A DNA stretch of 64,000 nucleotides from an uncultured Planctomycetota bacterium (GCA_963719315.1 CAVRBU010000002.1:608001-672000); one strand, 5' to 3'; counted from the stretch's first letter, positions 30,001-39,000 are shown. Numbers: made by a program.

Positions 30001-33000
30001 TCGGGAAATCGAGGCGGTGCTGTTTGACCGGTCGTGCCGGTTATGAGGGCGGTGGGCTGATTGCAAATCGCAAAATGCAAATTGCATCACCGTTTGTGCG
30101 AAGCGGCGTCAGAATGTCGGCCCTTCGATTGGCAATTTGCAATTGCCGCCTGTTAGGCCCGGGCCGGCCAGAGATTGAGCCAGCCTTTTTTTGGCGCGGC
30201 TTCACCGGTTGGGTCGTCCGACTTGCCGGAGAGAGCGATAGCGAGTTGACTCATTGACTGCGTGATCGCGGCCTTCGGCGCCTGCTGCAAGAGCGGCACG
30301 CCGTTGTTGCGGACTTCGACCATCACGCGGTAGTCGTTTGGAATCTGCCAGAAAATATCTCGACCGATCGTCTCCTGGGCTTTCCGCAGGCTGATCTGGC
30401 CGGTTTCGTAGCCGACCCGGTTGACGACGATCTTCACCTTTTCGTCGAACTTGCTCTTCTCTTTGAACGACATCAACAGCCGCACCACGTTGCGCAAGCA
30501 CGGCAGATCGAGCTGCGTCACCAAAAGCACCTGGTCGGCCTCGCCGAGCGCGTACATGTCGAGCTCGTTGAAACCCTTTGAGGTGTCGATGATCACGTGC
30601 GTGAACGCGGCCTTGAGTAGACCCAGAACGCGGGCCAACTCATCGGCCGTGATATTGCGGGAGTCTTCCAATTGCACGGGGCGCGGCAACAGGTACAGCC
30701 CGGTGTCGTGCTTCGTAAGCGAGCGCTTGAGCAGCGTGAGATCAAGCCGGCCGATGTTTTGAGCAACGTCGGAAAGCGTGTATTCGGGAATTGTGTCCAA
30801 GAAGACGTCGGCATCGCCGAGACACAGATCGAGGTCTACCAAGACCACTGAATTCTCAGCGTTTGAGGCCAATGAGCAGCTAAGGTTCACGGCCACGCTC
30901 GTAGTCCCAACGCCACCGGTGGAGCCCGTCACCGCGATGATCGAACAATCGCGGCGGCCACCGCCCAAACCGCCGGATCGCTGGCGGGAGACGCGCTGTC
31001 AGCGCGGCCGACAGGTCTTCCGTCTTCAGTGGCAGAGTGAGGAACTCCTTCGCGCCCGAGCGCATCACCCGCAGAATTAGGTTGCCGTCGGTCGAAGTGC
31101 TTGTGACCAGAACCGCACAAGTGGGCGACGATTTGGCCAGCGACTCGACCAGCTCCAGCGCTTTGTCCGGGTTACTGTCCAGCGCGACGAATCCAACGTC
31201 CGGGTTCGTTTGACCGACAACGTCGGCGAAGAACTCGTACCGCGAGCACTCGGCTTCGAGCCACACCGAATCCAGCCCCAGGAGCATCGACTTCAGCGTT
31301 TCGCGCGTCGCGTCCTTGGGATCGACAACGGCAATTCGCAGGACGTTCGACATGGGGGCAAATCAGCGGTCAGGAGCCAGAGGGCAGAGGGAAGAAATCC
31401 GAGGCAAGCGGGGAACGAAGACTCAGCGTCGGCAAATGCCTAATTCTCTCCACCGGCCCCGAACTCCGGCCTCTTTCTACGCAAGAATAGCTTACGGCAT
31501 GCTACTGAACGTCGTATCCGACGGGGCCGATCAGGCTGTTATCGGGCTGCGACGGCGCGGGTTGCACCTGCGACGATTGCGGGTTGTAGGATTTTAACGC
31601 ATTACGCATGAAAACCGGCTGGCGCTGCGGGCTGTACGGCCGTGGGGCCGTATAAGTCGGCATTCCGCCCTGCCCGATTTGTGGAGTCGTCGGTGTGAAG
31701 GGGTTTACCGGCTGAAAGGAGGAAGCGTCGTTCGGCGCCGGACCCTGCGTGGCATCGGCCGCGGGCTGATCGAAATTCGCCGACGGTCCGGCTTCGCCGG
31801 CTGGAGTCGTTGCATTCGCTTCTGACGGCAAGAATTGATCGTCTCCGACCACCGGTAGCGTGATGTCCTCCGGCTGGTTTTGAACGCCGGATTGAGGCGG
31901 CGTCGGCCCATCGGCGGGAGCTTGATTGGATCCGTTCTGCGGCCCGCTCTCCGGCGGTAGCGGCTCAACCTGTTGCGGTTGATCCGTCACGGTCGTTGGT
32001 GCGTTTGACGTGTCGTCGTAACCCGTGCCGCCGGGCAAGACCACGTTGCCGTTCAACATTGGCGCGGGCCCGGAATTCATTGGCATATTCCCCTGGCCGC
32101 TGTTGCACGACTGGCAACCACCGTTGCTATTGCAATCGTCGCAGCCGCAGGCGCTCAGGCTTTGCCGCGGATTGCAATAGGTGGGCACTTCCATTTGGCC
32201 ACCGCAGTACAGGCCGCGGTTGGTGGGCGATGTGGTGCACGTGCCGGGTCCGCCGTCGCACGCCAATTCGCCGGCATCGATCGGGTCGACGAACTCCGGC
32301 GTTACGATTACTAGTAACTCGATCTCGTTTACTTTGTCCCGCGTTCTTCGAAACGGCACGCCTATGACCGGCACGTCGGAAAGATACGGTAAACCGGTGC
32401 TCAGCGTTTCCGTTCGTTGCTGAATCAATCCGCCAAGAGCAAAGGTTTGGCCCGCTTTCATCTCGACGGCCGTATCTACCTGGCGGACGGTGAGCGCCGG
32501 GATGTTGTTTCCGTTTAGAATTACACTCAGCGTCGGGTCAACGTCGCTGATCCGCGGCCTCACCTCAAGGCGAATGTTTCCGTTCCCCAAGACGATTGGA
32601 ATAAAGTCCACTTGTGTTCCATACGGTTTGTACTCGATGCTGGTGGTCCCCAAACTCTGAGGTATCAAGACTGGGAATTCACCACCAGCTTGAAACTGTG
32701 CGGGTCGGCCGCTGATGGCCACGATGTTGGGCTCTGCCATGATCCGGGCAGCTCGGCATTCTTCGAGCGCATTGAGAAACGCTAGGAAGGAGCCATTGCC
32801 ATTGAATACACCAAACTGGAATGTCTGCCCTCCGCTTCCAATGGGCCCTCCCACCTTTACGAGATTGCCGCCATTGCTGATAATCGAGCCAGCAGGCTGC
32901 AGCAGCCCACTAACGTTCGACGCGGCGAGAATGCTTTGTCCGTTCAGCACCGCCCAGTCGACTCCCAAATCTCGCAGCTTTGTTCGCGAGACTTCCATCA

Positions 33001-36000: not shown

Positions 36001-39000
36001 ATGCACCTGTCCGCTCCACGAAAAAACCCCTCGGCAGCGAACTGCCGAGGGGTGTCTGTTTCACATTAGCAAGTAGGGCATAGGCCCGTACCGGCAGGTC
36101 GATTAACCGAGCTCACCCGCAACATTTTCGAACGTGGCGTTCGCGTTCGTACCGATCGAACGAATGGCGGTCAAGCACACGATCACGATCAACGCCAGCA
36201 TAACGGCGTATTCGACCGCGGTGGGACCATCTTCCGAGGCGAGGAAACGTTGTACCTTCACAGCAAGACTCTTCATAGCATCCTCCGGTTCTCGGGCGGA
36301 CCTGTTTAGGTCATACCCTATTAGGTTGACGGGAACTGTAGTTGCTCCCGATAACTGGCCTCCCCGACTGCGAGCCGCAAACCACCCTTCGAGTGGCGTG
36401 CAACTGGGCCTGCAGTGCGCGGTCGTGAAGGCCTACCAAAAACGTGGAGTACTGCGACAATCAACCTCGCGTTGGCACGGAAAAATCCGCTTGTTTCGCT
36501 CGCAGCGGCCGCCCGGGCAATGCCCAAACGATCGCCGGTTCGCGACTGCCAACATCCTTTCGGCAACCTGGCTACCGGCCAATAATGACCAGCCCTTGGT
36601 TTTGCGCCCCAGCCTTGCGACTGGTTTGCCTTTTCGAGGATGATGACGCTGCAGGCCCTTGTTTACACGGAACGCCGCTTCGTCTCACGTAGGTCGGGCT
36701 TCAGCCCGACGATCGATGAGGTTTGTCGAGCTGAAGCCCGACCTACGGATCGGAAGAAAAGTTTCGCGTGGCTCACTCCCTTGCGGGAACTCACCAAGGG
36801 ACCGACGTTTTCACGTCATGTCTCCACCGCAAACCTATGTCAACTTCGCTCGAAGTCAAACGGCCGACTTGAGCCAAAACAAAAATCTTCCAAATGTTAC
36901 GGTGTTAGCACGTCAGCGGCCGCAATATCGTTGCAATCGGGCTTAACGTTGCTGTGCTTCACATGGCCGTTTGCGCCGGCAAGGCCGGCGGGCAAACCCC
37001 AAAACCGCACCATGCTGGCCGGCGTTTCTGCCGGTCGTAACAGGCGCAATGGATCGACTTCCTGCGGGCTGTATCCGAAGACGACCGGAATGCCGCGGCT
37101 GCAGTGCCGCGACCACACGCTCAGAGTGTACGCCCCCACGTCGCGGATCACTATCCAGTCGCCGGGTTCAATCGGCGGCAAGAGAATCTCACGAGCCAAT
37201 AGATCGCCCGCGAAGCAGAGTGGCCCGGCAATGGTTACGCGGGTCGGCGCTCCCGTTTTCGGCACACCGCGGCGATCTAGCACGAAGAACTCGTGCATCC
37301 AATCATCGGGCCGATAAACGGGACGCAGCAGAAAATCGGCGCCCAGGTGGATGACCGCCAGCCGCTGCTCCGGCTTGACGTACTCAACCCGGCTGACGGC
37401 GATCCCACAATTCGCGTGAATGGCTCGGCCAAACTCGGTGATCAGCCGCACGTTGGATGTGAACAAATCCGGCGACCACTCTTCGAGCAGCCTGCGATAC
37501 TCGGCGGTTGTCGGGGCCACATCGCCAGTGCGATAGACGGTCGGCAACCCGCCGCCGATATCCACGATCGGAACACAATTGCCGGTTGTGGCGATAATCT
37601 CGCGTCGCAGTGCCGCAATTCGCTCCACGGCATCGGCGAGCAGCGTTAATTGACAACCTTGAGAACCCGCATGGACGTGCAAGCCATTCAGCCAGGCATG
37701 TTCTGCAAAGGCGGCGATGATCCTAGGCCGCTCCGGCAGCAACGGCACGCCGAACTTAGAGCCCGCCACCGAAACGCTCGTCTGCTGAATGCCGCCTCCG
37801 CCCACCATCGGATTCACTCGCAGGCCGATCGGCGAAGTCGAGTGGCACGAAGTGTCGCGCGGCGGCAATCCGCTCCAGCTCAGCGAAATTGTCGACATTC
37901 AGATACACGCCCAAGCGGAGCGCGTGGGCGATTTCGTCGATCGTTTTTGCCGGCGAATCGAAGATCACGCGCTCCGCGGGGCAGCCGGCGGCGAGTGCCA
38001 ACTCAACTTCTTCAATACTCGCGGCTTCGAGCCCGGCCCCCGTTCGAACGACCTCGCGGAGCACTTCCACCAGGGGATTCGCCTTGATGGCGATCGCGTG
38101 CAGTGTCGAAACAGGAAAATCCGCCTGTAGCGCGGCGATCCGCGTCCGCATGAGGCCGAAATGATGAAAAATGGCCGACGTGGCGCCAGCCAATAGTGCA
38201 CAGCGCTGGGCGGCTTGAACGATTGTGGCCGCTTCTTGCAGGGTTAGCCGATGATTGAAGACGTCCATATTGCTATTTCGGCAGTTGAAACTTTGTCGTC
38301 AGCCGTCCGCTACCAGCAAATCGATCTCCTGGTGGCTGATGGCTGACGTCTGATGGCCCTCCGCCAGGCAATCGATTTTTTGGCGTAAACCAACGAGCTG
38401 GTCGCGGAGCCAGTCCAAGCGATCCCCAAACGACTCGCCGATGCTCCGATCGGTTGCGACGCGCGTGATCAATTCGCCGCCGAGAGCCACTCGCAGCACG
38501 CAACCTGCAGGCCCCAGGGCAACCGGTTGCCCGATGTGGTATTCGCGCGATACGGTCTCTCGATCGAGGCCGCGGTGCTTGGCGGAAAGGTCGGTGGCGA
38601 GGTCGCGGTGCATTTTTCTAAGTTCCGCCTGGCCGAGTGTTTGCCGTTTACCCGGCGAAGTCACCCAGAATCCAAACACGGTGGTCTTGGATTCCAACAA
38701 CCGCTCGGCCGTGTCGTCGTATACAGGTGGAAACACAGGCAGCATGCGAATCGTGCTGGTCTCGCTCAGTATTCGGGCGCCTCGGCCTCGAAGAACCGCA
38801 GTACCCGCAGGCGAGCGCCGTTCGGAACGCGGTAGTATGTGTCCATTTCGGCGATGGCGGCCGACCATCGCAGTAGCAGGCCGTAGTTTGGCCGATCGGG
38901 CAACGATCGCCGGAGTTCAGGCCAGCTCTCGGGAAGTTCGCCCGCCGTAAAATAGTCTCGGAACCCGGCCGGAAGGGCATGAAGTTGCCGCCTGGTCGGA

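Follow-up and report, generated by a model that had tools for sequence, protein, structure and literature searches.

A class-I c-di-GMP aptamer in the leader of the Flp pilin gene of Pirellulales: a predicted switch of Tad pilin supply

What does the lone c-di-GMP-I aptamer of an uncultured member of the Pirellulales control, and in which direction? The aptamer lies on the minus strand of the 64,000-nt stretch of DNA analyzed here (the window, from whose first letter all positions are counted), and the initial annotation read it as direct control of Tad pilin supply by c-di-GMP at the RNA level. Searching the 5.93-Mb, 90.7%-complete genome with RF01051 and RF03167 showed that the aptamer is the sole copy, as annotated, with an RF01051 match of 65.9 bits (E 2.5e-12; cut-off 35) at 36559-36640 (C2 644559-644640). 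With its complete closing helix P1 it spans 36553..36642 (Rfam core 36558-36640), the 5′ strand of P1, CAUCCUCG, occupying 36642-36635 and the 3′ strand, CG-AA-AGGAUG, 36562-36553. P1 and both hairpins are formed in the minimum-energy fold, the fold beats 200 of 200 shuffled sequences (z -2.83), and P1 shows covariation among relatives. In the alignment to the consensus structure, the first hairpin is capped by a GCAA loop, which is a GYRA tetraloop, and the AAA linker stands in the context CGC-AAA-ACC.

The aptamer 3′ end is separated by 282 nt from the start codon of flp (36103..36276, minus strand), in agreement with the annotated 57-aa Flp pilin gene about 283 nt downstream on the same strand. 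The 57-aa Flp prepilin (PF04964, 36.2 bits; cut-off 32.2) carries G/PTAVEY, a form of the Flp prepilin motif G/XXXXEY, and the block G17-A28 that includes G-PTAVEY is invariant across 107 relatives. It is the only above-threshold flp of the genome; a second Flp-like match, at about 8979-9098, fell short of the cut-off with 20.9 bits and was treated as spurious; its overlap with queA on the opposite strand (9160-10242) comes solely from its open frame of 187 aa (9031-9594). Directly 3′ of flp we found an intrinsic terminator (36020..36053, minus strand) with a 12-bp stem, 9 GC pairs and a T6 run, and an equivalent is present in 80 of the 107 relatives. This result speaks against the earlier description of flp as the head of a Tad/Cpa operon. 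Because a strong terminator ends flp, the switch would govern mainly flp itself.

The gene order on the minus strand is flp, then cpaA-cpaB-cpaC-cpaE-cpaF-tadB-tadC, and all seven components of a Tad/Flp (type IVc) locus that were sought besides the pilins lie on this one strand between 26408 and 35688. They are encoded by the prepilin peptidase gene cpaA (Peptidase_A24; 35080..35688; PF01478, 60.1 bits), cpaB/rcpC (33696..34760; SAF domain; PF16976, 89.8 bits), the secretin gene cpaC/rcpA (31502..33595; PF00263, 130.7 bits; PF13629, 60.4 bits), cpaE/tadZ (30153..31353), the ATPase gene cpaF/tadA (T2SSE; 28547..29872; PF00437, 229.4 bits) and the two T2SSF genes tadB (27481-28521; PF00482, 63.4 bits) and tadC (26408-27400; PF00482, 74.9 bits). 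Here cpaE/tadZ is split into ORFs of 157 aa (TadZ_N/REC-like) and 271 aa (AAA_31/ParA-like) in different frames, and its homologues in genomes G034, G078 and G010 are single open frames of 400-417 aa. Because of this split, the Tad pilus may be non-functional in this genome. The locus holds no minor pilin genes of the TadE/TadF/TadG type; three PF13400 genes are located elsewhere in the genome, all of them without an aptamer.

Across the order, RF01051 gave 151 matches in 101 of 151 genomes (89 of 135 among the high-quality genomes), and gene neighborhoods were tallied for the 150 matches, from 100 genomes, that were retrieved. A Flp ORF lies downstream of 107 of these 150 aptamers, that is, in 92 of the 100 genomes and in 22 of the 25 families with matches; all 107 ORFs match PF04964, and at least two flp copies occur at 22 of the 107 loci. 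The comparative counts reported earlier from fewer relatives were thereby reproduced on a larger sample. Another 18 aptamers precede tadE/tadG minor-pilin genes, so that 99 of the 100 genomes carry the switch before a gene for a Tad filament component (flp or tadE/tadG). The link between aptamer and flp is strongly conserved in the order. The broader proposal of a conserved c-di-GMP input for the whole order is overstated: 50 of the 151 genomes have no match, and flp is present in 9 of the 10 such genomes that were checked. A 309-nt metatranscriptome contig covers 36270-36575, and RNA-library contigs of relatives, from runs of three studies, bridge the aptamer and the 5′ end of flp, although these libraries may contain DNA and the contigs do not prove a single transcript. 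Each of 24 sequencing runs contained less than 0.2 of the sampled words, and the four runs that were mapped covered only conserved parts, from relatives; their depth and the uncovered parts carry no information on expression level or habitat.

The aptamer is followed by a long leader (36277..36552, minus strand) that reaches to the start codon and is the presumed expression platform; the corresponding spacer in the 107 relatives measures 36-365 nt (median 234). It contains a conserved structured domain at 36347..36439 (minus strand), in which a long covarying helix encloses both GCAGGCC (36413-36407) and an inner GC-rich hairpin. GCAGGC is found in 71 of the 107 leaders, usually some 112-137 nt upstream of the ATG. 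The arms of the domain pair at -26.0 kcal/mol in cognate and -20.0 kcal/mol in non-cognate combinations, and covariation scored 0.389, against 0.204 after shuffling (0 of 500), over 57 sequences that had been preselected for their ability to form the helix. RNAalifold, run on two MAFFT alignments of the domain, yielded no consensus; the structure was named from column statistics after this null result, and its pairs were then counted. Comparison with Rfam gave no family at E<=1. Among the roughly 19 flp genes of genomes lacking the switch, 2 have GCAGGC at the equivalent distance, one of the two with a partial aptamer match. A sigma-54-type promoter around GCAGGCC was rejected by eye, the spacing here being GG-N7-GC and that of sigma-54 promoters GG-N10-GC. 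Pairing of GCAGGCC with GGYUGC of the aptamer would need a bulge. Further upstream, a conserved GCGAGG element (36465..36470, minus strand) complements the 5′ strand of P1, and a CGAGG-type partner occurs in 87 leaders at a median of 174 nt before the ATG (IQR 159-185). The alternative helix between the two was discarded as chance, with -10.4 kcal/mol for cognate, -10.3 for non-cognate and -10.1 for shuffled pairs, and only the conserved position of the CGAGG motif stands.

We consider it probable that the flp mRNA begins with a canonical class-I c-di-GMP riboswitch, which couples the supply of this pilin, the filament subunit of the Tad pilus, to the c-di-GMP level. The earlier claim of direct RNA-level control is supported in part, by the canonical contact bases described below, by the conserved position of the aptamer before flp and by the bridging RNA-library contigs, whereas direction and mechanism are inferred. 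The platform would be the long structured leader with its ~90-nt GCAGGCC domain and without a classical terminator, and control would probably be exerted at the start of translation or on mRNA stability. The flp start comprises a Shine-Dalgarno sequence, GGAGGA (36286-36281), and the ATG (36276-36274; together 36274..36286, minus strand), and on reading the sequence GAGGAUG at this site is the exact complement of CAUCCUC in the P1 5′ strand. Ligand binding would close P1, and the CAUCCUC strand would then be tied up, away from the ribosome-binding site GAGGAUG. Because closed P1 occupies this complement, high c-di-GMP would raise pilin synthesis, and we lean towards an "on" switch for flp. GGAGGAT is present in 32 of the 107 leaders and the extended complement GGAGGAUG in only 14. 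Pairing of the P1 5′ strand reached -8.1 kcal/mol for first flp copies versus -6.0 kcal/mol for second copies (20 loci). An ensemble test on 103 leaders with the aptamer locked revealed no systematic change in the accessibility of the ribosome site (mean unpaired fraction 0.31 versus 0.35; 21 leaders up, 8 down). The CCUC stretch is, as such, complementary to any strong ribosome site.

The sister switches of the same order have short leaders; the genes behind them are tadE/tadG or encode a family of unknown proteins. In 21 of the 29 short leaders that could be parsed, from 41 examined, the P1 3′ strand together with AACC pairs with the segment holding the start codon; this helix has a mean energy of -11.1 kcal/mol versus -7.3 kcal/mol for shuffled sequences and shows compensating changes among loci. 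The P1 3′ strand and AACC would pair with GGUUGC(R)AUG and hide the start codon as long as P1 stays open, and the predicted design of these short-leader switches is clearly "on".

The same riboswitch could instead be of the "off" type, c-di-GMP lowering flp expression so that pili are made by low-c-di-GMP swimmers for first surface contact. In Caulobacter, Tad pili are made by the low-c-di-GMP swarmer cells, and since they belong to that stage an "off" switch would also be biologically reasonable. The ensemble test, being directionless, leaves room for it, and the window leader contains a hairpin followed by AUUUUU (36481..36508, minus strand; -12.5 kcal/mol in our own scan), 50-72 nt past the aptamer; once P1 has closed, this hairpin could bring transcription to an end. 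This hairpin, however, is absent at the equivalent place in the same-genus relative L089, and any hairpin with a U-run is found in only 39 of the 107 leaders, in heterogeneous form; a classical terminator was accordingly rejected as the conserved platform. As the sister switches of the order have an "on" design, and as "on" is also what a P1 5′ strand complementary to the ribosome site predicts, we regard the "off" type as rather unlikely.

It is improbable that aptamer and flp are separate units, with an flp promoter inside the leader and an aptamer RNA that ends earlier or only modulates read-through from upstream. The GCAGGC domain does keep a fixed distance to the ATG and a variable one to the aptamer (24-233 nt), a U-rich stretch that might mark such a promoter precedes it, and nearly all match-less genomes that were checked carry flp. 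On the other side, same-strand placement within 36-365 nt at 107 of 150 aptamers, the near confinement of the domain to aptamer-bearing leaders and the RNA-library contigs bridging aptamer and flp all argue for one unit, and a search for a sigma-70-like promoter in 35700-37000 found none.

The ligand was assessed from the bases that contact it. The columns taken as equivalent to Vc2 G20, A47 and C92 read G, A and C in the window aptamer. When it is aligned to the Rfam consensus, a G precedes the GC of the second helix. The variant c-di-GMP-I-GGC (RF03167) is presumably defined by a G that takes the site of the intercalating A, the A47 position; in its diagnostic column the consensus GACGC-G-AA faces GGCGC-A-AA in the window, that is, an A replaces the G of the variant, and across the order this position is A in 136 of 150 aptamers and G in 1. 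That the aptamer belongs to this variant and binds a ligand other than c-di-GMP is therefore very improbable, even though RF03167 matches above its cut-off (64.9 bits versus 59; 36558-36639, minus strand) and comes first in the clan competition when ranked by E-value, the bit score favoring RF01051. G20, A47 and C92 are the ligand-contact positions of Vc2 according to the relevant passages of PMC11218506. By these bases the window aptamer is of the canonical c-di-GMP-I class, and it is predicted to bind c-di-GMP.

The association of this RNA with Flp turned out not to be new. The same gene layout exists in Blastopirellula marina, presumably a member of today's Pirellulales, whose printed leader resembles those of loci L087 and L097. 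The supplement of the 2007 GEMM study (PMC1950547), in its searched part, gives "RNA-> Flp-> hypo-> CpaA" for this species, as a single table row without comment, and main-text passages of the same study (Weinberg 2007) name cpaA among the GEMM-linked genes and describe GEMM as common in Planctomycetes. The suspicion that the early GEMM papers might already list tad/flp genes was thus correct. Neither those main-text passages nor the searched supplement of PMC1950547 contains a tally across the order, the targets tadE/tadG, the domain in the leader or an analysis of the platform.

The pilA1 switch of Clostridioides difficile, which belongs to another phylum, differs from the flp switch in its class II aptamer, in serving a IVa rather than a Tad/IVc pilus and in acting by transcription antitermination. 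This c-di-GMP-II riboswitch is reportedly an "on" switch (work ascribed to Bordeleau, 2015). It resembles the flp switch in that the link from c-di-GMP to the gene of a type IV pilin is a riboswitch, not a protein effector; the Bordeleau study is a reference of PMC13234629. The window aptamer is most like the c-di-GMP-I class (GEMM-I, RF01051; type example Vc2 of Vibrio cholerae) as presented in passages of PMC1950547, sharing a score far above the cut-off, two hairpins joined by AAA, the GYRA tetraloop, the contact bases and the 5′ regulatory position. Compared with that class, the flp leader is very long (282 nt), lacks a conserved terminator and has an extra conserved structured domain; in the 2007 GEMM text, as far as its passages report, terminators overlap P2 in 78 of 322 cases (PMC1950547). 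The Bc1 switch of Bacillus thuringiensis likewise combines a class-I aptamer with a platform of ~220 nt and complex non-canonical control, but the passages of PMC11218506 on Bc1 describe two typical terminators, whereas flp leaders mostly have none.

More tentatively, the flp leader may be a composite RNA, made of the aptamer and a previously undescribed, covarying ~90-nt GCAGGCC-junction domain that occurs almost only beside it and could serve as a terminator-less long-range platform or as the docking site of a second input, protein or ligand; the class-I regulon of Pirellulales would also have narrowed almost wholly to the Tad filament subunits Flp and TadE/TadG. In the rest of the phylum, the gene behind this aptamer mostly encodes a sigma factor. 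What is known of the riboswitch class and of Tad pili is unchanged by these results, the gene association having been in print since 2007, as a table entry only. Long-range riboswitch action could usefully be studied in a terminator-less leader of 200-300 nt that carries an additional conserved domain. How planctomycetes change between a swimming and an attached life is poorly understood, and the known regulators of these bacteria are few; one RNA sensor directly on the pilin message would connect c-di-GMP with attachment in a simple and testable way for a whole order.

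Rfam scans of the window detected a single riboswitch, a 64.9-bit match to RF03167 (c-di-GMP-I-GGC) at positions 36558–36639 on the minus strand, and a whole-genome search returned a 65.9-bit match to RF01051 (c-di-GMP-I) at the same place (contig C2, 644559–644640). The two families form one clan, from which the window scan retains the model with the better E-value, and each matched once across the entire genome (5.93 Mb in 20 contigs, 90.7% complete). Together with the downstream gene encoding a 57-aa Flp prepilin (flp; 36103–36276, minus strand; Flp_Fap, PF04964, 36.2 bits, cut-off 32.2), this bears out the initial annotation, which had placed the sole c-di-GMP-I riboswitch of the genome upstream of an Flp gene. 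The "GGC" in the name of RF03167 presumably refers to a G at the A47 position. The alignment column that holds G in the consensus of the variant (GACGC-G-AA) is occupied by A in the window (GGCGC-A-AA), and the GGC-variant identity was set aside. The window aptamer has G as the unpaired base before the GC of its second helix. Considering both columns and the c-di-GMP contacts of the Vc2 aptamer, stated as G20, A47 and C92 in passages of PMC11218506, we filed the window RNA as a predicted canonical class-I c-di-GMP aptamer. With its full closing helix P1 (5′ strand CAUCCUCG; 3′ strand CG-AA-AGGAUG), the aptamer spans 36642–36553 on the minus strand, and its isolated fold beat 200 of 200 shuffled sequences (z −2.83).

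No second above-threshold flp is present in the genome. Fifty bases past the flp stop codon starts a 12-bp stem with nine GC pairs, followed by six T (36053–36026, minus strand), and a gap of ~340 nt separates this terminator stem from cpaA. The remaining Tad genes, all on the minus strand, are cpaA (Peptidase_A24; 35080–35688), cpaB/rcpC (33696–34760), the secretin gene (31502–33595), cpaE/tadZ (30153–31353), cpaF (28547–29872), tadB (27481–28521) and tadC (26408–27400). cpaE/tadZ is broken up into two ORFs that overlap and lie in different frames, one of 157 aa (REC/TadZ_N-like) and one of 271 aa (ParA-like). Since its homologues in three relatives are single open frames of 400–417 aa, the window gene is frameshifted, either genuinely or through an assembly error. 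The Orn/DAP/Arg decarboxylase gene farther upstream (36897–38268, minus strand) is also split, into overlapping ORFs of 170 and 333 aa that jointly span the Pfam profile; two such breaks within 8 kb may point to indel errors in the assembly. A long palindrome with perfect arms (GUAGGUCGGGCUUCAGC ... GCUGAAGCCCGACCUAC; 36686–36749, minus strand) sits between this gene and the aptamer and resembles either a dispersed repeat or a terminator lacking a U-run. The window also holds two tRNA genes (47535–47607 and 51315–51388, both minus strand) and a gene for a DUF1559/N-terminal-methylation protein (22513–23622, minus strand), a kind of protein common in planctomycetes.

The association of aptamer and flp is robust within Pirellulales. 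RF01051 was found in 101 of the 151 sampled genomes of the order (89 of the 135 high-quality ones), and 150 of its 151 matches, the one left out being probably that of genome G137, were relocated by nhmmer and analyzed. With a locus-derived Flp profile, we called an Flp ORF downstream on the same strand for 107 of the 150 aptamers, and PF04964 matched all 107. Of the 100 genomes contributing an analyzed match, 92 had an flp-linked aptamer, as did 22 of the 25 families with matches (28 families sampled), consistent with the conservation of the link proposed in the initial annotation. The spacer between the aptamer and the inferred ATG ranged from 36 to 365 nt (median 234); 22 of the 107 loci carried two to four flp copies, and one locus (L066, G007:C70) a tandem pair of aptamer–flp units ~820 nt apart. 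The broader proposal that the riboswitch is the conserved input of the whole order was overstated: RF01051 was not found in 50 of the 151 genomes, and in nine of ten such genomes checked, flp of the same type lacked the aptamer.

No Flp ORF was called for 43 of the 150 aptamers, three of which were truncated by contig ends. Eighteen aptamers preceded genes for TadE (PF07811) or TadG-like proteins (PF13400 and PF09977, some with VWA), among them all seven of family f19, none of which stood before flp. When flp and tadE/tadG targets are combined, the switch precedes a Tad filament gene in 99 of the 100 genomes. Seven aptamers were located before genes for a family of 137–340-aa proteins without a Pfam match, which begin directly after short-leader aptamers and may encode additional pilus or adhesion components. 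Another six, all in other genomes of this genome's family, were the second aptamer of their genome and preceded a poorly conserved 60–78-aa ORF and, after it, a long hairpin whose loop reads GUGUCCCCCAA, accompanied by a U-run at some loci; a ribosomal protein L33 gene lay 500–600 nt farther along at two of them (L095 and L115). Outside the order, 65 of 150 genomes from the phylum carried RF01051. The 34 aptamers sampled there were biased toward top scores (31 from the best 30 loci by score, plus three same-class loci), and no flp gene followed any of them. Within this sample, 14 aptamers, all among the 30 best-scoring loci, preceded a sigma-70-family gene whose product has regions 2, 3 and 4 (a FliA-like domain composition), four preceded N-methyl pilin-like genes and one a subtilase gene. 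One family outside the order, f59, carried up to 27 aptamers per 3–4-Mb genome.

A classical terminator was rejected as the conserved platform of the flp leader, because a simple scan detected a hairpin with a U-run in only 39 of the 107 leaders, at scattered positions; that of the window leader (36508–36481, minus strand; −12.5 kcal/mol) was absent from a same-genus relative. The same scan detected strong terminators after flp at 80 of the 107 loci (examples range from −21 to −33 kcal/mol), indicating that these bacteria use such signals, but not as a conserved switch platform. The motif GCAGGC occurred in 71 of the 107 leaders, mostly ~112–137 nt upstream of the ATG and 24–233 nt from the aptamer, enclosed by a long helix whose arms vary among families but remain complementary (a stretch of ~90 nt at 36347–36439, minus strand, in the window). 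Across 64 distinct leaders, cognate arms paired at a mean of −26.0 kcal/mol, versus −20.0 kcal/mol for arms from other families. An alignment of 57 leaders, which were selected by duplex energy, supplied the structure itself and include related, non-independent genomes, had 66.9% of cells paired versus 54.0% after shuffling and 36–49% with slid partners, and a covariation score of 0.389 versus 0.204 for shuffled alignments (0 of 500) and at most 0.244 for slid ones. No Rfam family matched this stretch at E ≤ 1. Among switch-less genomes, GCAGGC stood at the equivalent distance before two of ~19 flp genes, one of the two with a partial aptamer match, indicating that the domain tracks the aptamer and not flp. 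These sequence comparisons suggest that the GCAGGCC domain is part of the expression platform; the Bc1 class-I aptamer, as described in passages of PMC11218506, is a precedent for a long, complex platform. Two more hairpins follow the structured domain ahead of the ribosome site, at 36330–36350 (CGGGAGC...GUUCCCG) and 36299–36312 (GACC...GGUC), both on the minus strand; within this genome's family, 10 of the 11 flp leaders keep the former, which is seldom seen elsewhere.

The short-leader sister switches, before tadE/tadG genes and the family without a Pfam match, are plainly of predicted "on" design. Here the P1 3′ strand is followed by AACC, giving a 9–10-mer (e.g., AUUGCAACC or GUUUGCAACC) complementary to a segment 3–23 nt downstream (GGUUGCGAUG or GGUUGCAAAUG) that contains the ribosome-site tail and the start codon. 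This complementarity was present in 21 of 29 parsed short leaders (41 examined), the masking helix averaged −11.1 kcal/mol versus −7.3 kcal/mol for shuffled downstream sequence, and variable bases co-changed across both P1 strands and the masking arm. Because some bases belong to both P1 and the masking helix, closure of P1 by the ligand should free the start codon.

In the flp leader of the window, CAUCCUC of the P1 5′ strand is exactly complementary to GAGGAUG of the ribosome-site region (36285–36279), which thus mimics the P1 3′ strand. In ligand-free RNA the P1 5′ strand could mask the flp ribosome site, and upon ligand binding P1 would retain the CAUCCUC strand. The P1 strand reads CATCCTCG in 61 of 99 parsed leaders; of all 107 leaders, 32 contain GGAGGAT and only 14 contain GGAGGATG. 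At 20 loci, first flp copies paired with the P1 5′ strand at −8.1 kcal/mol versus −6.0 kcal/mol for second copies. An ensemble model with the aptamer locked gave no systematic gain in ribosome-site accessibility (0.31 vs 0.35), and a conserved CGAGG ~174 nt upstream of the ATG, also complementary to the P1 5′ strand, paired with it at an energy no better than chance. Support for masking is modest, and we cautiously infer that the flp switch is probably "on", acting on translation or mRNA stability.

Contigs from four metatranscriptome runs of three studies, compared at 80% likeness, cover the aptamer and the conserved part of the flp coding sequence. They come from relatives, the window organism being in no run (share of sampled words below 0.2 throughout). 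A 309-nt contig spans window 36270–36575 at ~86% likeness, and several contigs connect the flp 5′ end with the aptamer across a leader whose length differs from that in the window. This fits co-transcription of aptamer and flp in these relatives, with the proviso that such libraries may contain DNA and that a contig is no proof of one continuous RNA.

According to Weinberg et al. 2007 (PMC1950547), GEMM, another name of this riboswitch, is frequent in some orders of Firmicutes and Planctomycetes and apparently regulates several pilus genes, cpaA being one of them; the supplement gives the layout for Blastopirellula marina as RNA, Flp, a hypothetical gene and CpaA, so that the novelty initially suggested for the pairing is not supported. 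The relevant passages of a 2026 review (PMC13234629) cite a riboswitch only via a Clostridioides difficile pilA1 reference, and those of a 2010 paper mention c-di-GMP riboswitches and Planctomycetes each in passing, in separate places; the titles and abstract openings retrieved by full-text literature searches did not treat the planctomycete case. The aptamer-before-flp observation is correct, and the pairing is a further instance of a known riboswitch type. Beyond what is in print are the "on" platform predicted for short-leader switches, a conserved flp leader that has no conserved terminator and carries an additional domain, and the order-wide tally of aptamer targets, with a switch focused near-exclusively on Tad filament subunits in Pirellulales.
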